DNA of 64,000 nucleotides from Candidatus Magasanikbacteria bacterium RIFCSPLOWO2_12_FULL_43_12. GTDB taxonomy: Bacteria; Patescibacteriota; Patescibacteriia; Magasanikbacterales; UBA922. A model generated the notes under the pieces. That model had not been told where the DNA came from. It did no database searches and saw nothing but the letters and a program-made list of their open reading frames with translations. Made by a program: the position numbers and the translations under genes. Below, one piece after another: positions 460-27,256 of the stretch (its first letter is position 1; every line of letters begins with the position of its first letter). The DNA lies in the NCBI GenBank assembly GCA_001783065.1, contig MFQN01000003.1:15314-79313 (forward strand), read 5' to 3'.

Positions 460-536
460 TGGTGCGCATGCCTGGATTTGAACCAGGGACCTCGTCATTA
501 TCAGTGACGCGCTCTAACCAACTGAGCTACACGCGC
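460..536 (-). tRNA. tRNA-Ile(GAT)
   Basis: GCGCGTGTAGCTCAGTTGGTTAGAGCGCGTCACT-GAT-AATGACGAGGTCCCTGGTTCAAATCCAGGCATGCGCACCA; full cloverleaf with encoded CCA. Confidence 0.92.
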
Positions 537-5876: not shown

Positions 5877-8149
5877 TCTAAATGCACTCTCTCTCCCCAC
5901 TCCTCTACTTTCTCTTTCAGCGCCGGATATTTTCCAAAATCCATCCCCCGCGCTAAATCGCGCGCCAGTTTTATAAGCTGTCCGTCTTTCATGGTAGCCA
6001 ACCGAAAATTTTCCATTCCGCTTTGCGCCGTGCCATAGACTTCGCCGGGGCCGCGGTTTTCCAAATCATATTCCGCGACTTTGAAACCGCTGGTGTTTTG
6101 TTCAAAAAATTTCAAACGCTCCGCGACTTTCGGAGAATCGCTATCCGTGAATAAAAAACAATATGATTGATGCGTGCTCCGGCAAACCCGGCCGCGGAAT
6201 TGATGCAATTGCGCCAAACCAAATCTTTCCGCGCCCTCAATCATCATCACGCTGGCATTAGGCACATTCACGCCAACCTCAATTACTGAAGTTGAAACCA
6301 AGATATTGATTGCTTGCCCAGTAGTGATGCTGAAAGCATCTACTACTGTGGATCCATTGCTAAACTGCTCCATTGTTTCTTGTTTTTCAGTTGATTTTAA
6401 TTTCCCATGCAAAAAACCAATTTTCAAATCCGGAAAAATCGTCTTAGATAACTTTTCGTATTCTACCATCACCGTTTTTCTCTCGTCATTTTGAAATTTG
6501 AAATTTGAAATTTGAAATTTATTTGTATCTTGTATCTTAGTATTTTGGTCAGTCTGAATCAACGGACAAACTACAAACACTTGTCGTCCTTGCTTCACTT
6601 GTTCTCTAATAAACTGATACGCTTTATCCCGATTGCGCGGTTCAACCAATCGCGTTTTAACCGGCTTACGCCCTGGCGGCATCTCGTCAATGATTGACAA
6701 ATCCAAATCGCCAAACACCGTCAACGCGAACGACCGCGGAATCGGTGTCGCCGTCATGCTTAAAAAGTGCGGCGTGGTTATCCCCCTCTCCTTGCCAAGG
6801 AGAGGGGCGGGGGGTGAGGTGGTCTCGCCGAGAGAGAGGTCTCGCTCGCCAACCCGCGTTTTCCCTCTCAACACCTTTCTCTGCTCCACTCCAAACCTAT
6901 GCTGTTCATCCACGATAACCAAACCAAGATTTTTAAATTGCACATCTTCAGACAGCAACGCCTGCGTCCCGACAATAACGCCAACTTCCCCATCTTTTAT
7001 TTTATTCCGCAATTTACTTTTACTATTTATCTCCCTATCTCCATTTATCTCCCTTATCATTCGCTGGCTTCCGGTAAACAATCCCAAACTAACTTTATCT
7101 CCCAGCGCCTCCAACAAAGTCTCAAAGTGCTGTTTAGCCAATATCTCGGTCGGACACATCAGCGCGGTCTGAAACCCATTCAACGCCGCGTTATACATCG
7201 CCATGGCCGCGACAACTGTTTTGCCGGAACCAACGTCGCCTTCAAGCAAACGATTCATTGGCTCGTCTTTTTCCAAATCGCGCAAAATTTCCCAGGCCGC
7301 GATTTTTTGTTTTTTAGTTAATTTAAACGGTAAAGAATCAACAAATTTTTTCGTTTCTTTTTCTTTGAATTCAATTTTCGGCGCGACTGCTTTTTTGATT
7401 TCCTGCCTTATCATCTCGCCGCGCAACTGCAAAATAAAAAGCTCATCAAATTTCAACCGGCGTTCCGCGTGTTTCAATTCGTCCTGCGATTCCGGAAAAT
7501 GAATCGCTTTAATCGCTTCAACCAAACTCATAACATCCGCGCGGTCGCGCAAATTTTCCGGCAACCACTCTTTAATCTGGTTCGCGAGATTAATCACCTG
7601 ACTCAACAAAAACCGCAACTGCTTATTCGTAATCCCGCTCGTTAACGAATACATCGGCACAATTCTGGCAGTGTGAGTAGTGCGCGTCCCCTCTCCTCGT
7701 AGAGCCTGCACTGAGCTCGCCGAAGTGAGAGGGGCAGGGTGAGGTCTCTCGCGTTCGTACGCCGGCCCCACCATCTGCGCCCCAAAAAAATCACCGGTAA
7801 CTTTGCCGGAAAGATAAACCCTATCCCCCGCCTTCAAAATCTTCGCGATAAACGGCTGGCCAAACCACACCACGCGCAACTGACCGGTGTCATCAGCCAC
7901 CACCGCCTCGGTGATAATCGTCCGCTTGCGCGGACTGCGCTTGCTCGCTATCAATTCAACCTTGCCGCGCACGCTCACCTGCATTCCCTCGCGCAAATCT
8001 TTAATCGGAACGACTTGACTATAATCTTCATATCGGAAAGGAAAATAAAACAACAAATCTTTGGCTGTTTCAATACCAAGCTGGCGCAGTTTTTTCTCCA
8101 ACGTCTTGCCAACACGGTTTAAATTTGACACCGGTGTAGATAAATCCAT
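5873..8149 (-). CDS. recG: ATP-dependent DNA helicase RecG with several in-frame repeat-derived insertions
   Basis: LLEGDVGSGKT, IVDEQHRFG, MTATPIPR, AERFGLAQLHQFRGRV motifs. Confidence 0.97.
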   Translation of the reverse strand: MDLSTPVSNLNRVGKTLEKKLRQLGIETAKDLLFYFPFRYEDYSQVVPIKDLREGMQVSVRGKVELIASKRSPRKRTIITEAVVADDTGQLRVVWFGQPFIAKILKAGDRVYLSGKVTGDFFGAQMVGPAYERERPHPAPLTSASSVQALRGEGTRTTHTARIVPMYSLTSGITNKQLRFLLSQVINLANQIKEWLPENLRDRADVMSLVEAIKAIHFPESQDELKHAERRLKFDELFILQLRGEMIRQEIKKAVAPKIEFKEKETKKFVDSLPFKLTKKQKIAAWEILRDLEKDEPMNRLLEGDVGSGKTVVAAMAMYNAALNGFQTALMCPTEILAKQHFETLLEALGDKVSLGLFTGSQRMIREINGDREINSKSKLRNKIKDGEVGVIVGTQALLSEDVQFKNLGLVIVDEQHRFGVEQRKVLRGKTRVGERDLSLGETTSPPAPLLGKERGITTPHFLSMTATPIPRSFALTVFGDLDLSIIDEMPPGRKPVKTRLVEPRNRDKAYQFIREQVKQGRQVFVVCPLIQTDQNTKIQDTNKFQISNFKFQNDERKTVMVEYEKLSKTIFPDLKIGFLHGKLKSTEKQETMEQFSNGSTVVDAFSITTGQAINILVSTSVIEVGVNVPNASVMMIEGAERFGLAQLHQFRGRVCRSTHQSYCFLFTDSDSPKVAERLKFFEQNTSGFKVAEYDLENRGPGEVYGTAQSGMENFRLATMKDGQLIKLARDLARGMDFGKYPALKEKVEEWGERVHLE

Positions 8150-13668: not shown

Positions 13669-14556
13669 ATGCGCGAAGAAATCACTAGAAGAAATTTTTT
13701 GAAAAAAACCGGAGCAATTTTAGGTTTGGCCGCTTTGGAACAAATGGGTGTTAGCGAAGCCAATGCCGAACCGAAAATTGACACGGCGACAGGTGGTAAA
13801 GAAAAAGAAAAAAACCAACTGCCGGAGATTGAATACCAAGACAAACAATTAGACGGGTTTGTTTACCAAAACAACCGCGACCGAAGAGGAAAACTAAAGG
13901 TGGAATCTCCGAAAAACGGAAGGATACTTTTTTTTAGGGAGTCGCTATCTCACAAACCAAATACAATATTACGCCAACTTGATCACGAATTGTACCACCA
14001 AAATTTTGATAAAGCCGGATTGGAAAAACAAACGGAAATCGCGCGCTTAATTTTATCAAAGTACAAAATAGAAGACATTTTAAAACAAGTCCTGAATGAA
14101 CCGACTTACGAGACGCAATTTGAACAATTGCGAAAACAATCCGGGCAACCAACCGCGGAAATTTATGCTGTCAATGAGTTTCTGGGCCACGTCATGAGCT
14201 ACGCCGATTACCCGCCGCCGGAAGTAAAAAACCCCAAAGGACATTTCACCAAACAGCAGTGGACGGAATTCTTATCTGAAGAGATAAAAAACGGCGGAAC
14301 GGAAGAAACTCTTATTGAACAATTTAAACAAAATCCGAATCTGATCACGCCCGCCTCTTCCGCCGCGTATGATGTTAGCGATAAATTCTTTTTTGAACTG
14401 CGGCAAAACAACATGTTGCTTCCAAACGATCTTAAAAAAGCGCTGGAAAAGTACGGTTTAACCGCCAATACCGAACGCGCCAAGGTTTTATTGGAGAGAA
14501 TAAAAAATCTAAAACAAAAGACACCAAATAGTCCCGATAGGGACGCCAGATTGTAG
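13669..14556 (+). CDS. Hypothetical protein with twin-arginine-like N-terminus
   Basis: TRRNFLKK followed by a hydrophobic stretch and ANA; HELYH (HExxH) motif. Confidence 0.65.
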   Translation: MREEITRRNFLKKTGAILGLAALEQMGVSEANAEPKIDTATGGKEKEKNQLPEIEYQDKQLDGFVYQNNRDRRGKLKVESPKNGRILFFRESLSHKPNTILRQLDHELYHQNFDKAGLEKQTEIARLILSKYKIEDILKQVLNEPTYETQFEQLRKQSGQPTAEIYAVNEFLGHVMSYADYPPPEVKNPKGHFTKQQWTEFLSEEIKNGGTEETLIEQFKQNPNLITPASSAAYDVSDKFFFELRQNNMLLPNDLKKALEKYGLTANTERAKVLLERIKNLKQKTPNSPDRDARL

Positions 14557-14796
14557 CCAGGGCATTTATGCCCTGGAAAAGATTCACATTTAAACAAAAG
14601 TCCCAGAGGGACGGCACAAGTTATATTCAATACTTTCCAAAATATCTATTTTGAGCGATGTGTCGTCCCTCCGGGACTATCCGACATTATTGATCTTTTT
14701 CCAGGGGCTAAAGCCCCTGGCTACTATCTGTCGCCCATGTTGGGGCTCAAAACGATTGGACAATTGAAGTACCTGACTACGACCCTTACGGGACTT
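14552..14796. repeat. REP/BIME-like palindrome cluster
   Basis: gtagccagggcatttatgccctgg and inverted ccaggggctaaagcccctggctac; gtcccagagggacggcaca and tgtgtcgtccctccgggac. Confidence 0.7.
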
Positions 14797-16165: not shown

Positions 16166-16858
16166 ATGCAAAAACTTAATCTCAAAAAAATCATCTTCCT
16201 CGCCGCCTTCGCTCTCATCGGTCTCGCCGCGATGCAGGTTCCGTTCAGCCAGCTCGTCGGCGCGAAGGGCGTCCGTTTCTCGCTCTTTGACTTCTACGGC
16301 CCGATCGCCGGCGGATTTGTCGGTTCAATCTGGGGTTTGGTGACAGTCGGGATAATGCAACTGGCCAACTGGGCATGGCACGGTTTCGCAACTGACGCCG
16401 GAACGATTATCAGATTTTTCCCAATGTTGTTTGCTTTATTGTATTTTGCTAAAAAAACACGATGGATGTTGTTGGTTCCGGCAATCGCTATGATTGCTTT
16501 CTGGGCGCATCCGGAAGGGAGACAGGCGTGGTATTACGCTCTTTACTGGTTAATTCCGATTGCCGCGTATTTCTTTCATGAAAAATCGATCCTGCTCCGC
16601 GCTCTCGGTACCACTTTCACCGCTCACGCTGTCGGCGGGGCATTGTGGATTTGGATTTTCAATATGAAAGCAATATTGTGGATTGGCTTAATCCCCGTAG
16701 TCTGGAAAGAACGAGGTCTGATGGCGATCGGCATTACTCTCACTTTCATTCTCTTTAATTTTTTGATGAGCGTTATCGCGCAAAAAACAAAAATCCAGTT
16801 GCCGTTCATAAAATTAAATCCGAAATACTCGCTCCAGCAAAATAAAACAACCCTTTAA
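16166..16858 (+). CDS. Polytopic membrane protein, possibly ECF S-component-like
   Basis: 230 aa with ~6-7 hydrophobic helices; family assignment is a guess. Confidence 0.6.
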   Translation: MQKLNLKKIIFLAAFALIGLAAMQVPFSQLVGAKGVRFSLFDFYGPIAGGFVGSIWGLVTVGIMQLANWAWHGFATDAGTIIRFFPMLFALLYFAKKTRWMLLVPAIAMIAFWAHPEGRQAWYYALYWLIPIAAYFFHEKSILLRALGTTFTAHAVGGALWIWIFNMKAILWIGLIPVVWKERGLMAIGITLTFILFNFLMSVIAQKTKIQLPFIKLNPKYSLQQNKTTL

Positions 16859-16873
16859 CAGAGTTGCTTTAGC

Positions 16874-16963
16874 GGCGGAGAGCAATGGAGTCGAACCATA
16901 TTCGTCTTGCGACGAACCGACTACTTATCAGGTAACGTTCTGCGCCGGCAGAATTTACTCTCC
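16874..16963 (-). tRNA. Non-canonical 8/4 allo-tRNA-like gene, anticodon GAT, long variable arm
   Basis: GGAGAGTA AA TTCTGC CGGC GCAGAA C GTTAC CTGATAA GTAGT CGG TTCGTC GCAA GACGAA T ATGG TTCGACT CCAT TGCTCTCC G CC. Confidence 0.8.
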
Positions 16964-17000
16964 ATGCGCACCGCCAGCGATATTTTATCATAAAACAATA

Positions 17001-17069
17001 AAACAAAACACCCCTTTCGGGGGTTTTGTCGATTCGCGAAAACGAATACGGTTCGCTACCTGATAAGTA
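17001..17069 (-). ncRNA. Putative small RNA antisense to the allo-tRNA, ending in an intrinsic terminator
   Basis: 13/13 complementarity to the anticodon arm plus a 28-nt block complementary to the V-arm/T-arm; CCCC-GAAA-GGGG hairpin with U-rich tail. Confidence 0.65.
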
Positions 17070-17074
17070 CTCCA

Positions 17075-17103
17075 AATATATCATGCTGCAAGAAATTTGT
17101 CAA
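17075..17103 (-). promoter_or_regulatory. sigma70 promoter for the antisense sRNA
   Basis: TTGACA-17 nt-TATATT with TGn extension; TTATCCACA (DnaA-box consensus) at 17109-17117. Confidence 0.7.
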
Positions 17104-17124: not shown

Positions 17125-18495
17125 ATGAACTTCAACCAAGCCTACAACTATATTCTTTCTCTTAATAATCTGCCGAGAAAAGAATACATGAGCGATCCGC
17201 GCCATTGCGGATGGTATTTGTTGCGTTTGCAATTCTTTTTAAATCTGATTGGAAATCCGGAACGCAAAATCCCCCACTATATTCACGTAACCGGCACATC
17301 AGGTAAGGGATCGGTAACCGCGTATCTGCATTCAATCCTGCAAGCTTCCGGCAAAACCGTCGGCTCAACCTATTCTCCGCACCCAACGATAATCACTGAA
17401 CGTTGGAAGGTCGGGAAACATTACATGACTAAAAAAGAGTTTGCCGATATCGTGGAATATCTAAAACCAAAACTGGATGAATACATCGCCAAAACGCCTT
17501 ATGATATGCTTTCTTTTTTTGAAGTTACCGAAGCGATCGGCTTGTTATTTTTCGTCCGCAAAAAAGTCAGCTGGGCGGTGATGGAAGTTGCTTGCGGCGG
17601 CCGGACAGACTCCAGCAATATCATTCCTTGGAAAGACGCGGCGATAATCACCAATATCGGCGTGGACCACATCGGCGTGCTTGGCAGAAACAAAGCGGAA
17701 ATCGCGTATGAAAAAGCGGGAATAATTAAGCGAGGCGCGCCAGTATTCACGATGGAGAAGGATGAGAAGATGTTGGAAATCATAAGAAAAGAATGCAAAA
17801 AAAATTCAGCCAAACTTTATCTCTCACATCCTACGCCCTACGCCCTACGCCCAACGACTGACATAGGACATATGGCATATGACGTAGGTAAGATGAAATT
17901 TAGTTATCAAAACGAAAATTATTCTATCCCTTGTCTCGGCGCTCACCAAATTCGTAACGCTATTCTCTGCATTGAGATTGCCCAACATTTAGGAATCAGC
18001 CGACAGTCTATAAAAAAAGGATTAAGCCGGGTTCAACAGCCGTTGCGAATGGAAGTTGTTTCTAAAAATCCGCTAATAATTCTTGATGGAGCGCATAATC
18101 CGGATAAGATGCGGACGACGGTAGATACACTTCATCACTTCATCACTTCATCACTTCATCACAGCGACACGAGACGCAATGTCAATTTACTGGTTGGTTT
18201 TTCCGGCGACAAAAACGTGGCAAAAATGATAAAACAACTTGTTTCCCTAAAACCCAAAACAATCGCGGTGACACGCAACACTACCAACCCGTTCCGCAAA
18301 GTGGCTGACCCGCAATCCACAAGCAAACAATTCAAAAAACTTTTACCGAAAACGAAAATCAAAATTTTTCTTGATCCTAAAACCGCGTTAGCTTGGTCAA
18401 AAAAACAAACAAAAAAAGACGAAATATTGCTCGTTACCGGCTCAATATTTGTAAGCGGAGAACTCCGCCCTCAATTTAAAGTGAAAAAGAAATAA
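17125..18495 (+). CDS. folC: Folylpolyglutamate synthase/dihydrofolate synthase (Mur-ligase family)
   Basis: IHVTGTSGKGS, SPH, EVACGGRTD, IAYEKAGI, ILDGAHNP, LLVTGSIF; start MNFNQAY. Confidence 0.9.
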   Translation: MNFNQAYNYILSLNNLPRKEYMSDPRHCGWYLLRLQFFLNLIGNPERKIPHYIHVTGTSGKGSVTAYLHSILQASGKTVGSTYSPHPTIITERWKVGKHYMTKKEFADIVEYLKPKLDEYIAKTPYDMLSFFEVTEAIGLLFFVRKKVSWAVMEVACGGRTDSSNIIPWKDAAIITNIGVDHIGVLGRNKAEIAYEKAGIIKRGAPVFTMEKDEKMLEIIRKECKKNSAKLYLSHPTPYALRPTTDIGHMAYDVGKMKFSYQNENYSIPCLGAHQIRNAILCIEIAQHLGISRQSIKKGLSRVQQPLRMEVVSKNPLIILDGAHNPDKMRTTVDTLHHFITSSLHHSDTRRNVNLLVGFSGDKNVAKMIKQLVSLKPKTIAVTRNTTNPFRKVADPQSTSKQFKKLLPKTKIKIFLDPKTALAWSKKQTKKDEILLVTGSIFVSGELRPQFKVKKK

Positions 18496-23787: not shown

Positions 23788-24990
23788 CTAAAACCTCTCA
23801 ACATTCTCCTCCACATAATTCCACAACTCCCGCGCGACATTACTTGGTTCGCCGGCCAGCGGCTCGTGATGCAAATCAATGAACGGCGTGCCGTTGCACT
23901 CTATAATCCCCCACTTTTGTCCTTGTGGAGGAATAGTAACATCTTTAATAATAAAATCAAAACCCACCAGCGGATCGTCCACGACTGCGGCCGCTTGTTC
24001 CATTACGTTTTTTATCTCCGGATGTGTTTCTTTGATTACTTCGGCGCGGAAACCGCCGTAACTCACGCCGATTTTTTCCAAAAGGTCAATTATTTCTCCG
24101 CCGGTTGGTACACTATTCAATGCCCAGCCTCTGCGACTCAAAAAACTAAGATGTTGATTATCAATTATAACCTCGCTGACAAGATGATGCCGAGTTTTAT
24201 TTTTAATATCAATAAGTTCCGCGATGGTATGAACGCCGTCGCCGACGACTCGCGGCGGATCTCCCCGCAAAAGACCGGCCAGCTTACCGTTAATTAATGT
24301 CGCGCGATAAACGCTTCCCTCCAAATGTTCCTCCATTATCACCCAATGACACAGTTGTTTGGCAATTTTAAACGCTTGCTTTAATTCTTCTACTGTAAAA
24401 ACATTGGTGGTGGTGTGCCGGCCGCGCGAACCCAGTCGCGGTTTTATGATCACCGGTTTATCAAGCTGACGGAACATCTCCAGTATTTTATCCCAGCGAG
24501 AAAATGAACCTCCGCGCGCGACCGGCAAATCTGCTTGTTGTAATTTTTTCTTCAGCAATTCTTTATCATCCAACCACAGCTCTGAACCGCTGTCAGTCCT
24601 TATCGGCCGCGGCAAGCCGTTAAAATAAATCCGCTTGTTGCGAACCACGGCTTGATACACGTCAACCGAACGTCCGCAGACAATAAAATTTCCCATCAAA
24701 ATACCGCGCCTGATCGCTTCCTGCCAAAACACCTTGCCGCGTTCGCAAACAACGCGCGTGATATTAGCATTCGGTTTAGCAACGCCGAAAAGTTTAAGTA
24801 CATAAATACTGCCGATAAAAAATTTGTGAGCCAATCTTGATAATAACGAATAGACCCAGCCGCGGATAATTATTCTATCCAACGGATTCAAAAATACTTG
24901 CGCGGTTTCCGCGAGCCATGCGGGAAAATGCGGAGTCGGATTGTTCCCGCACGCTTGACAGTTTTTTTTAGACAAACAGGGTTGGCTCAT
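23788..24990 (-). CDS. Cyanophycin-synthetase-like ATP-grasp ligase
   Basis: DDKELLK, PVIIKPRLGSRG, VVGDG, VGFDFI, IIECNGTPFI; start MSQPC. Confidence 0.8.
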   Translation of the reverse strand: MSQPCLSKKNCQACGNNPTPHFPAWLAETAQVFLNPLDRIIIRGWVYSLLSRLAHKFFIGSIYVLKLFGVAKPNANITRVVCERGKVFWQEAIRRGILMGNFIVCGRSVDVYQAVVRNKRIYFNGLPRPIRTDSGSELWLDDKELLKKKLQQADLPVARGGSFSRWDKILEMFRQLDKPVIIKPRLGSRGRHTTTNVFTVEELKQAFKIAKQLCHWVIMEEHLEGSVYRATLINGKLAGLLRGDPPRVVGDGVHTIAELIDIKNKTRHHLVSEVIIDNQHLSFLSRRGWALNSVPTGGEIIDLLEKIGVSYGGFRAEVIKETHPEIKNVMEQAAAVVDDPLVGFDFIIKDVTIPPQGQKWGIIECNGTPFIDLHHEPLAGEPSNVARELWNYVEENVERF

Positions 24991-26392
24991 AGGAAAATTT
25001 TGGCGGCAAAATATTCGTTGCCTTGCCATAAACAATTTTATATAATTCCGGCATCATCTGGTCAACCGCCTCATTAAGGGAGCGCTTTGACGCGGTATCG
25101 CGCAAACGCTCTGCGGTGTCTCCATTCGCGTAAAGGAGAAAATCAAACGGAGTAGCTGGAACATCCCTCCCCTGATTAGACAACGTGCCAAGAACAAATT
25201 CTCCGCAAAAATAATCGGTGCTAATTGAGGACAGCTGATCAATTTCAATCTGGCCGGCGCCAATCGTTTGCCGTAACGAACGATACGCTTCTTTCATGGC
25301 GGTGAGATAACTAACCTGCAAAAACCCGCCGCCGCAGGACAATCCGTAATAAAAACTCAAAACAATAAAAGTCAAGGCCATGCTCGGCATAATTTCTTTT
25401 TTAAGAATCGCTTCGCGAAGCGCGGTTGGCTCAAGCGCGATTCGGTATTCCCCGTCTTCTGATGCCAGTATTAAACCATCGCGAATCAATCGTTTTCTTC
25501 TGCCGTTCTGAATCGCCCAAAATAATATCGTGCCGCGAGCTGATTCTGAAGAAAATGCGCCGGCAATGCCGTCAAAATATTTTTCAAACGCGCGCAACGC
25601 TGATTCGTCGGTGAGTAAACGGAACAACGCGGTGTCGCGTCCCAAGTGATACGCGAGCAAAAGTTCGTTGACGATATTTTCCTGCTCAAGATAAATAAGA
25701 TTGACCGCCGACTGCCCTGGCATTTTCTTCCAAAGACAATAATTTAGATATGTAATCTGCTCCGAATAAGAACGCGCGGAAAATAATCGCGGCTGTAGAC
25801 AGACATCCCGTGTGATTTCCTTTAATCGCTCTTTGAATCCGATGGAAAAATTTTTATTCTTATCAATCTCCTCAACAATCGCGTCCAAGGTTGATTCCTG
25901 ATAACGCGGCAAAGCAAACACCGGATGCTGGCGATAACGCAGGCTGAAAAAATGCAGACATTCTTTTCCCAAATCGTTATTATGGAAAAAAAATCCGCGC
26001 GGAAAAGAAGAATTATTCAAAGATACTCCGCCAACCGAAAAAACAAAGACGCAATTACGGCCGCGCTGTTCGTTTGCCAACGAACGGACAAAATGGCTGT
26101 TGGAAAAAAACGGATGAGTGAGCGGACCATGATGGTCGGTGGTAGAAGCGCGGTAATTCACGCGCAACTGTTTTATCGCGTCGCCGCTAATCGCTGGATT
26201 AATATATTTATCAATTAAATTTTTCAAAACCGTGAAAAACTCTTCTTGCCGGGCTAATGACACCGGCGGCAATAAACTATCTGCCGTCTCTTTAAAAAAA
26301 TCAAGAAGGGATAGATTTCCCTTCTCATTAAGAATACGTCTAAATATTGGCGTGCGCTGTAAAACTTTATCACGCAGGTCTTTAAAAGTCAT
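24968..26392 (-). CDS. Hypothetical protein coupled to the ATP-grasp gene
   Basis: Start MTFKD (ORF-track start overlaps a tRNA); motifs TTDHHGP, NNSSFPRG, GGFLQVSYL. Confidence 0.75.
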   Translation of the reverse strand: MTFKDLRDKVLQRTPIFRRILNEKGNLSLLDFFKETADSLLPPVSLARQEEFFTVLKNLIDKYINPAISGDAIKQLRVNYRASTTDHHGPLTHPFFSNSHFVRSLANEQRGRNCVFVFSVGGVSLNNSSFPRGFFFHNNDLGKECLHFFSLRYRQHPVFALPRYQESTLDAIVEEIDKNKNFSIGFKERLKEITRDVCLQPRLFSARSYSEQITYLNYCLWKKMPGQSAVNLIYLEQENIVNELLLAYHLGRDTALFRLLTDESALRAFEKYFDGIAGAFSSESARGTILFWAIQNGRRKRLIRDGLILASEDGEYRIALEPTALREAILKKEIMPSMALTFIVLSFYYGLSCGGGFLQVSYLTAMKEAYRSLRQTIGAGQIEIDQLSSISTDYFCGEFVLGTLSNQGRDVPATPFDFLLYANGDTAERLRDTASKRSLNEAVDQMMPELYKIVYGKATNILPPKFSYEPTLFV

Positions 26393-26414: not shown

Positions 26415-26504
26415 TGGCGGAGAGACAGGGATTCGAACCCTGGGACCCCTTTCGGGGTCAGCACATTAGCAGTGTGCTGCTTTCAGCCGCTCAGCCATCT
26501 CTCC
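26415..26504 (-). tRNA. tRNA-Ser(GCT)
   Basis: GGAGAGATGGCTGAGCGGCTGAAAGCAGCACACT-GCT-AATGTGCTG, long variable arm, GGTTCGAATCCCTGTCTCTCCGCCA. Confidence 0.94.
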
Positions 26505-26551: not shown

Positions 26552-27256
26552 CTACCCCCTCGCCACGCTAAACCCAATCACTCTTTTAACGCCGGAGGAT
26601 TTCAATACTCGCGCGCATTCTTGCATGGTCGCGCCGGTAGTGAAAACGTCGTCAACTAATAAAACCGCGTTTGCCCGAAAATCGCTATTAACAAACGCGT
26701 GGTGGACATTTAATTGCCGTTCTTCACGAGAAAGCTTGGCTTGCTGTAAAGTATAACGATCTCGCTTTAACAAATCAACCACCGGCCGGCCGATTTTCTG
26801 ACCTAAAATATCTGCCAACAGGCGCGCCTGATTGAATCCTCGTTCCGCAAAACGCCTGCGATGCAGAGGCACCGGAACAATCAAATCTATTTCTGACAAA
26901 ACTCCAAGCTGATGAATTAAAAATCCGTCAATCATTTTCGCGAACACGGCGATAATCTCTTCGGCATAATTATACTTTAGTGCCTTGATTAATTTCCCAA
27001 CCAAGTTCTCTTCTTGATAAACTGCGATCGCCACTGCTCTATCTAAACAAGACTGTGGCTGACAAACAGCGCAACAAGCGCCATTCCCATTCGGCCGATA
27101 ACAAACCGGACAATAAAATACACCGCGCAAATCTATTTTGCCAAAACAATCCGCGCAAACCCATTCTCCCTCCTTATCGCAACCCAGACAAAAAATGGGA
27201 AATAAGCAATCTTTACTTATCTGCAAAATTTTTGAAACAGCAGTCTTTGTCGCCAT
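26552..27256 (-). CDS. comF: ComF family competence protein (zinc ribbon plus PRTase)
   Basis: CxxC pairs, LKY, VPVPLH, RGFNQA, LLVDDVFTTGAT. Confidence 0.93.
   Translation of the reverse strand: MATKTAVSKILQISKDCLFPIFCLGCDKEGEWVCADCFGKIDLRGVFYCPVCYRPNGNGACCAVCQPQSCLDRAVAIAVYQEENLVGKLIKALKYNYAEEIIAVFAKMIDGFLIHQLGVLSEIDLIVPVPLHRRRFAERGFNQARLLADILGQKIGRPVVDLLKRDRYTLQQAKLSREERQLNVHHAFVNSDFRANAVLLVDDVFTTGATMQECARVLKSSGVKRVIGFSVARG

Follow-up and report, generated by a model that had tools for sequence, protein, structure and literature searches.

We identified a protein-free module of two adjacent predicted non-coding RNA genes, spanning ~230 bp, in a 64,000-nt stretch of DNA (hereafter the window) from the 1.05-Mb genome of a Candidatus Magasanikbacteria bacterium (hereafter the host genome, G000). 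One gene encodes a tRNA of the allo type with a serine-like acceptor and the anticodon GAU, and the other a predicted small RNA (sRNA) complementary to it. Comparison with homologous loci indicates that the module is real and conserved. It is apparently undescribed, and the sequence data make its proposed function likely, namely that a mistranslating tRNA is restrained by a dedicated anti-tRNA RNA.

Anatomy of the module

ARAGORN called a 90-nt tRNA-Ile(GAU) at 16874-16963. Together with Rfam and folding, this placed an (8/4) allo-type tRNA with a serine-like acceptor at 16876..16963 on the minus strand, with the anticodon GAU at 16929-16927 (minus strand) in both the ARAGORN model and the fold. 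The fold comprises an 8-bp acceptor, a 6-bp D stem with a CGGC tetraloop, a 7-bp variable stem and a 4-bp T stem; the long variable arm is accompanied by G73, and CCA is not encoded. By its acceptor/T stem, D arm, variable (V) arm, G73 and non-serine anticodon, the molecule qualifies structurally as an (8/4) allo-tRNA. In its acceptor stem, the first six pairs are identical to those of the host tRNA-Ser(GCU) (26415-26504). The best Rfam match was tRNA-Sec, at 42.7 bits under a cut-off of 47; this score and the anticodon, GAU instead of UCA, ruled out a tRNA-Sec identity. A canonical tRNA-Ile(GAU), with a 7/5 architecture, a short variable loop and A73, was ruled out by the 8/4 architecture, the long arm and G73. 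The canonical tRNA-Ile(GAU) gene of the host lies at window positions 460-536. The host also encodes a tRNA-Ile with the anticodon UAU (G000:C22:6240-6312, plus strand), which is unusual in bacteria.

The sRNA gene precedes the tRNA gene on the same strand. As the sequence-only reading had proposed, a promoter (17075..17103, minus strand; TTGACA-17-TATATT, 11/12 consensus match) is followed by a unit that ends at an intrinsic terminator, located by terminator scan and folding at 17000..17029 (minus strand; stem 17024-17010, outer limits approximate). The predicted RNA is ~70 nt long (17000..17069, minus strand, with the 5' end placed from the promoter), slightly longer than the ~65 nt first estimated. 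Its block 1 (17054..17069, minus strand), delimited by complementarity and co-variation, faces the anticodon arm of the tRNA; the 13 perfect pairs seen in the earlier reading lengthen to 16 bp including one G-U pair (duplex −24.5 kcal/mol). Block 2 (17028..17055, minus strand) is complementary to the T-loop, the 5' strand of the T stem and the variable arm. All of its 28 nt are paired, with the three G-U pairs and two single-base bulges noted before, the latter on the tRNA side (duplex −40.7 kcal/mol). The permuted order of the blocks relative to the tRNA was likewise borne out: they run anti-anticodon, anti-T, anti-V, whereas simple inversion of the tRNA sequence would give the order anti-T, anti-V, anti-anticodon. 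Speculatively, permutation may avoid a mirror cloverleaf or put a free end on the anticodon loop.

The tRNA has an extended −10 promoter of its own, TGATAAAAT, at 16982..16990 (minus strand), as the earlier reading had it; such a box likewise precedes 52 of the 57 homologues described below. It went unlisted in the consensus promoter scan because it lacks a −35 element. A terminator found by scanning lies 3' of the tRNA (16843..16871, minus strand) and overlaps the end of an opposite-strand ORF. Outside the module, the flanking genes encode a 230-aa hydrophobic protein without a Pfam family (16166..16858, plus strand), which may resemble a vitamin-transporter S component, and a protein of the Mur-ligase family (17125..18495, plus strand), which we take to be FolC-like.

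Between the −10 box and the tRNA, a leader segment (16971..16976, minus strand), delimited by pair probabilities and co-variation, faces the tRNA 3' end and discriminator. In the modelled window precursor, the leader paired with the 3' end with a probability of ~0.93, versus 0.07 for the acceptor stem. Leader and 3' end co-varied across loci (cognate score 7.1 versus 6.1; 0 of 20000 permutations). The first acceptor pairs fell below a probability of 0.5 in 37/57 precursors and 0/57 mature forms; the corresponding figures for ordinary tRNAs were 6/46 and 1/46. The leader helix may therefore, according to these models, produce a slow-maturing precursor that leaves the sRNA time to bind.

The complementarity is far above the chance level. 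The two-run score of the window module was 31.5, compared with a mean of 15.0 (sd 2.1) for 3022 genomic 135-nt windows, the highest of which were four at 23-24 and one outlier at 82.5 that was taken to be the tRNA gene itself. The 46 ordinary tRNAs of the host genome scored 11-20.5. For a further control, a general 8/4 pattern retrieved 92 stretches from a viral collection, of which 78 distinct tRNAs with at least 100 nt upstream (73 called with serine anticodons) scored 12.5-22; four modules in the same table scored 23-31.5. These 92 stretches were mostly phage tRNAs with serine anticodons and no partner RNA, and the same collection gave no match to the GAU 8/4 pattern or to a pattern modelled on published soil allo-tRNAs. 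Searching Rfam with the window sRNA gave no match at E values up to 1, and 11 other loci gave tRNA matches only.

Co-variation of the small RNA with its tRNA

The sequence-only reading had proposed a comparative test, and homologues in which the upstream RNA co-varies with the anticodon arm, the anticodon and the V/T arms do exist. When one genome per species was scanned for 8/4 tRNAs with the anticodon GAU, 30 stretches matched. Combined with matches from the family and after removal of four duplicates, these yielded 34 loci with complementarity scores of 14.5-31.5 (at least 22.5 in 31 of them) and tRNA identities of 56-97% (mean 69%). When only the promoter was used to delimit the sRNA, the cognate tRNA ranked first among the 34 candidates in 29/34 loci. 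Cognate duplexes averaged −52.5 kcal/mol versus −32.2 kcal/mol for the others, a difference reached in 0 of 100000 permutations; because the loci are related, this and the other permutation values overstate independence. Among the five remaining loci, three cognate partners ranked 2-4 among close relatives, and two (L119 and L120) had no sRNA within 200 nt. The sRNA of L119 lies ~240 nt upstream, beyond an insert, and that of L120 is encoded 3' of the tRNA, as a unit with a separate promoter and terminator. The sense-sense duplex was stronger than the antisense duplex in 31/34 loci.

Additionally, a metagenome scan without an anticodon constraint returned 30 stretches with 28 distinct tRNAs, carrying the anticodons GAU (19), GAC (3), AAC (1), GAG (1), GCC (1) and GCU (3); those of L102, L110 and L191 were assigned by hand. 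The 5' end of the sRNA tracked each altered anticodon, that is, GAC (three cases), AAC, GAG and GCC. Two of the three tRNAs with the cognate anticodon GCU showed no promoter-RNA-terminator unit by eye, and the third was truncated. In wider windows, the two testable GCU loci scored 16.5 and 19.0 against 18.5 and 19.0 for the weakest modules, an overlap that makes this control suggestive, not sharp. Stand-alone 8/4 tRNA-Ser(GCU) genes with an extended −10 box and without a partner RNA are those of L186, L195 and L208; they are a possible source of the serine body.

Pooling the scans gave the same layout at 57 distinct non-serine 8/4 tRNAs. In all 57, a promoter (10-12 of 12 consensus positions) stands before the anti-anticodon block, a second block lies 3' of the anticodon, and sRNA and tRNA are encoded on the same strand without overlap. 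Over tRNA positions 26-39, the 57 modules contain 726 Watson-Crick, 46 G-U, 7 A-C and 19 other pairs, with as many as six pair types per column. The excess of G-U over A-C (46 versus 7) indicates that it is the two same-strand RNAs that pair. Since the sRNA can sit downstream of the tRNA, it would act in trans, and the downstream placements rule out a cis-only read-through leader. Conserved promoters and terminators, with the downstream sRNA in some loci, also favour the two separate transcription units that had been postulated. Collectively, at the level of sequence, these comparisons establish the sRNA as a specific, position-independent partner of its tRNA.

The tRNAs themselves are well conserved at functional positions, with U33 in 56/57, A37 in 56/57, the D-loop GG in 56/57 and G73 in 60/60; the search patterns themselves prescribed the acceptor and T-loop bases and, for the genome scan, GAU. 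Compensated changes were found in the D, V and T stems, and D stems of 5-6 bp in 51/57. The anticodon stem is weak, its loop-adjacent pair being open in 31/57 homologues.

Further modules, alanine bodies and distribution

Three aspects lay beyond the view of the sequence-only reading: the leader helix, the multi-copy nature of the family and a second, alanine tRNA body. The host genome contains six modules. Serine-body GAU modules comprise the window module (contig C3) and two on contig C11, at 7787-7871 (minus strand; L105) and 18303-18390 (plus strand; L108). Both C11 modules have their own co-varying sRNA, and the tRNA at C11:18303-18390 was missed by ARAGORN at default settings. Contig C18 encodes a tRNA with a 7/5 alanine body (G3:U70, A73) at 24698-24773, within a module at 24553-24773 (plus strand; L139, L142). 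This tRNA is annotated as tRNA-Ser(UGA) and has a three-block permuted sRNA upstream; with C at position 37, its anticodon could also be read one register over (GAC). Contig C20 carries an 8/4 alanine body with an 8-nt anticodon loop at 25645-25718 (plus strand; L233) and a 72-nt G3:U70 tRNA-like RNA with a short D arm and an irregular anticodon loop at 27028-27099 (minus strand; L233), the sRNA of which shows a 15-bp match. For each of the six sRNAs, the cognate tRNA was the strongest predicted partner out of 52 tRNAs. The predicted net binding of the window sRNA to its folded tRNA was a modest −9.4 kcal/mol, one block at a time.

The alanine-body pattern, in which G3:U70 was forced by the search, occurred in 31/107 family genomes, with up to five matches per genome (five in G094). 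For 49 distinct tRNAs, drawn from part of 55 listed places and from loci of other scans, the own flank was best in 30/49 (mean 30.4 versus 23.0; 0 of 20000 permutations). The sRNA blocks are permuted here too, and in L145 and L236 the sRNA gene, with a promoter and a terminator of its own, follows that of the tRNA. As read, the 7/5 anticodons are UGA, UGG, GCG, CCG and GCA; the UGA and UGG forms, which have a pyrimidine at position 37, may be read with a one-base shift (GAC, GGU). The 8-nt loops, found in 8/4 tRNAs at L159, L162, L167, L237, L241 and others as well, contain the triplets ACC/GCC, AUC/GUC and GCU, of which ACC/GCC (Gly) and AUC/GUC (Asp) recur; these tRNAs could be four-base frameshifting tRNAs. 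At L239 (G094:C9) and L263 (G069:C28), two alanine-body modules stand in tandem, ~350-400 nt apart. No partner RNA was found at the native tRNA-Ala genes of the host genome or at L262, a native tRNA-Ala(CGC). In the viral collection, the alanine-body pattern matched six stretches with scores of 5.5-20.5, of tRNA-array or native type and with no promoter-RNA-terminator layout by eye. All modules found combine serine or alanine bodies with non-cognate anticodons, and we infer an independent origin of the two bodies.

Records with a serine-type module are labelled mostly as Patescibacteria, some only as 'bacterium' and four (L115, L116, L117 and L136) as Gammaproteobacteria; the genomes of these four measure 0.8-1.1 Mb, which suggests mislabelled Patescibacteria. 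The serine-type module occurred in 3/106 other family genomes, and the GAU form in 0/400 sampled genomes of the phylum. At the window site, G001, of the same genus, has a diverged module. In G002 (L006/L215, C8 ~14540), the promoter, the sRNA, the anticodon and the 5' two thirds of the tRNA have been lost together from this site, and the remnant consists of the T arm, the tRNA 3' end and the terminator. The gene for the 230-aa protein is present in 27/107 family genomes, in most cases immediately ahead of the folC-like gene. At 17 loci of other family genomes, no module was seen by eye 3' of the 230-aa gene, which was directly followed by the Mur-ligase-family gene in 12 of them. The modules are thus patchily distributed and look dispensable.

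The neighbours of the modules are mostly housekeeping genes. Pfam analysis of 58 flanking frames identified two transposases and one TrbL, and no defence genes or cas families; no near-cut-off Rfam CRISPR match was found at the module. With no defence gene in the flanks and no GAU module in the viral collection, nothing obvious is guarded. Elsewhere in the window, palindromic repeats at 14530-14747 gave two Acido-Lenti-1 matches on opposite strands (35-36 bits, cut-off 37) and a weak hairpin match; they are probably REP-like elements.

Proposed function and relation to known systems

We consider it probable, judging from sequence comparison, that the modules form an RNA-only toxin-antitoxin family in which a mistranslating tRNA is restrained by a dedicated anti-tRNA RNA. 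The two short units would be transcribed separately, as their conserved promoters and terminators imply. The tRNA precursor would fold first with the leader on its own 3' end, a pairing that co-varies and that would delay maturation. The sRNA would bind the anticodon loop and the V/T arms, and the tRNA would then neither mature nor decode. Upon depletion of the sRNA, through gene loss or a halt of transcription such as phage infection may bring about, the tRNA would be trimmed and receive CCA. The host genome encodes SerRS, a CCA-type nucleotidyltransferase (PF01743) and RNase III. An RNase P RNA candidate (G000:C20:32918-33297, minus strand), at 54.5 bits versus a cut-off of 100, is a divergent form. 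SerRS, an enzyme that does not read the anticodon, would load serine onto the freed tRNA, and the seryl-tRNA would put serine at AUC/AUU isoleucine codons, leading to growth arrest.

The proposed mischarging and miscoding rest on identity features and on published tests of related allo-tRNAs. SerRS is reported to read the long arm and base 73, not the anticodon (PMC5389517), and AlaRS to use G3:U70, not the anticodon (PMC11295145). An 8/4 serine allo-tRNA whose anticodon was that of leucine is reported to have caused serine insertion and to have been lethal to E. coli (PMC5389517). As the purpose of the module, self-addiction and abortive phage defence carry about equal weight. Points against the toxin-antitoxin reading are the weak anticodon stems, the published allo-tRNAs that gave no suppression (see below), the mostly housekeeping neighbours with nothing obvious to guard, the modest predicted binding and the small cognate-anticodon control. 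Taking all loci together, we incline towards a widespread, undescribed class of protein-free toxin-antitoxin or phage-defence modules in Patescibacteria, with serine or alanine bodies bearing swapped anticodons, leader fold-back and a circularly permuted anti-tRNA RNA, with at least two body origins and with pairs that do not cross-react within a genome. The swapped anticodons would cover Ile, Val, Leu, Gly, Ser, Pro, Arg, Cys and Asp, possibly along with four-base frameshifting loops.

Several other explanations were weighed against the toxin-antitoxin reading. The pair might be a tunable mistranslation switch, in which low, useful miscoding under stress (proteome variation, dormancy) is dosed by the sRNA. 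The anatomy and the co-variation fit this equally, the modules lie among housekeeping genes, and a deliberate miscoding pair of unknown purpose is reported from Streptomyces (PMC10057733). However, selfish or defence elements better explain why one genome holds several modules with separate specificities, why the substitutions are so varied, and why the modules occur patchily and are lost as a unit; we regard a switch as improbable. Less probable still is a tRNA-like RNA that is toxic or active without decoding, by occupying SerRS, IleRS, EF-Tu or processing enzymes or as an anticodon-nuclease decoy, with the sRNA as its inhibitor. Weak anticodon stems and the unusual 8-nt loops of some alanine-body tRNAs speak for it, as do allo-tRNAs that were lethal though non-decoding: six allo-tRNA(UAU) species gave no suppression in E. 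coli and two of them killed cells (PMC5389517), so such RNAs need not decode. Yet U33, a purine at position 37 and non-cognate anticodons on anticodon-blind bodies, all requirements of decoding, are kept. For IleRS as the partner, G73 in place of A73 argues against, since position 73 is reported to matter for this enzyme.

It is very unlikely that the roles are reversed, with the sRNA as a toxin that blocks host tRNA-Ile and the tRNA-like RNA as a sponge, or that the tRNA-shaped RNA is an antisense regulator of the C4 type, acting on the upstream unit. The 5' part of the sRNA does match the 7-nt loop of host tRNA-Ile(GAU) as well, and CreT toxins are reported to act on tRNA supply; but the predicted binding to the host tRNA is only −1.8 kcal/mol versus −9.4 kcal/mol for the partner, the sRNA tracks the variable loop and stem bases of the partner, not of the host tRNA, and the upstream unit contains no ORF that could be regulated, and the flanking genes vary. 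We give hardly any credence to a functionless inverted or template-switch copy, or to a change of the genetic code by which Ile codons are read as Ser. Complementary copies can arise through replication errors, but the compensatory changes over 57 divergent loci, with G-U outnumbering A-C by 46 to 7, and the units' own promoters and terminators stand against mere copying. Codon reassignment was rejected: residues of folC-like relatives facing AUC/AUU are Ile in 297 and Ser in 4 of 422, and a normal tRNA-Ile(GAU) is present as well.

The tRNA closely resembles the (8/4) allo-tRNAs of Mukai et al. (PMC5389517) in the 8-bp acceptor, the 4-bp T stem, the long D stem with a tetraloop, the long variable arm, G73 (G73 or U73 there) and the mostly non-serine anticodon. 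G3:U70 forms and a proposed link to toxin-antitoxin systems are also found in that report, in which, unlike here, the carriers are Clostridia, Proteobacteria and Acidobacteria and the genes lie beside toxin-antitoxin loci (PMC5389517). No antisense partner appears in the text consulted; in the text of its supplement, as distinct from the locus figures, the words 'antisense' and 'complementary' and the motifs CTGATA and TTGATA occur 0 times, and all 12 'GAU' matches fall in the codon column. Another natural bacterial tRNA whose anticodon mismatches its amino acid is the Streptomyces tRNA-ProA; as described in PMC10057733, it requires a dedicated synthetase gene (ProRSx), and no antisense RNA is mentioned in the passages on it. 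The tRNAs of the present modules would need nothing beyond the SerRS or AlaRS of the host.

Type VIII toxin-antitoxin systems (CreTA, SdsR-RyeA) are defined, according to PMC10767807, only by both partners being RNA. The adjacent genes for an RNA toxin and an RNA antitoxin match the present module, with the two roles here being putative. CreA is reported to act as a guide for a CRISPR effector, by which a toxic small RNA is repressed (PMC10097628, PMC9458426); the window module, in contrast, has no CRISPR-repeat-like antitoxin and no adjoining cas genes. SdsR and RyeA are encoded on opposite strands, unlike the same-strand, non-overlapping RNAs of all 57 modules. The module would differ from known type VIII systems in that the putative toxin is a tRNA and the antitoxin pairs with it directly, from a separate site on the same strand and without a protein. 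In hok/Sok, the precursor of the toxin transcript is closed by pairing between its two ends. Type I systems of this kind use a short antisense RNA to neutralise the toxin transcript (PMC1635323), and the module resembles them in both respects; here, however, a tRNA takes the place of the mRNA as target, no peptide is made, and the antisense RNA is a permuted, separately encoded copy. The arrangement was not described in the literature found, which was mostly open-access and included PMC13092985 and PMC7609411, and no Rfam family covers the sRNA.

If the proposed function is true, the module would provide a natural small RNA dedicated to a tRNA target and a toxin that is itself a tRNA, within ~230 bp and without a protein. 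Should toxicity hold, it would formally be type VIII, yet both halves would act unlike those of the two known type VIII systems. The modules account for spurious 'tRNA-Ile' and 'tRNA-Ser' annotations in Patescibacteria, and their orthogonal tRNA/anti-tRNA pairs may be offered as switches for synthetic biology. They also give a testable answer to what allo-tRNAs do and how the cells that carry them survive, and would indicate an overlooked layer of defence or addiction in the minimal genomes of Patescibacteria.
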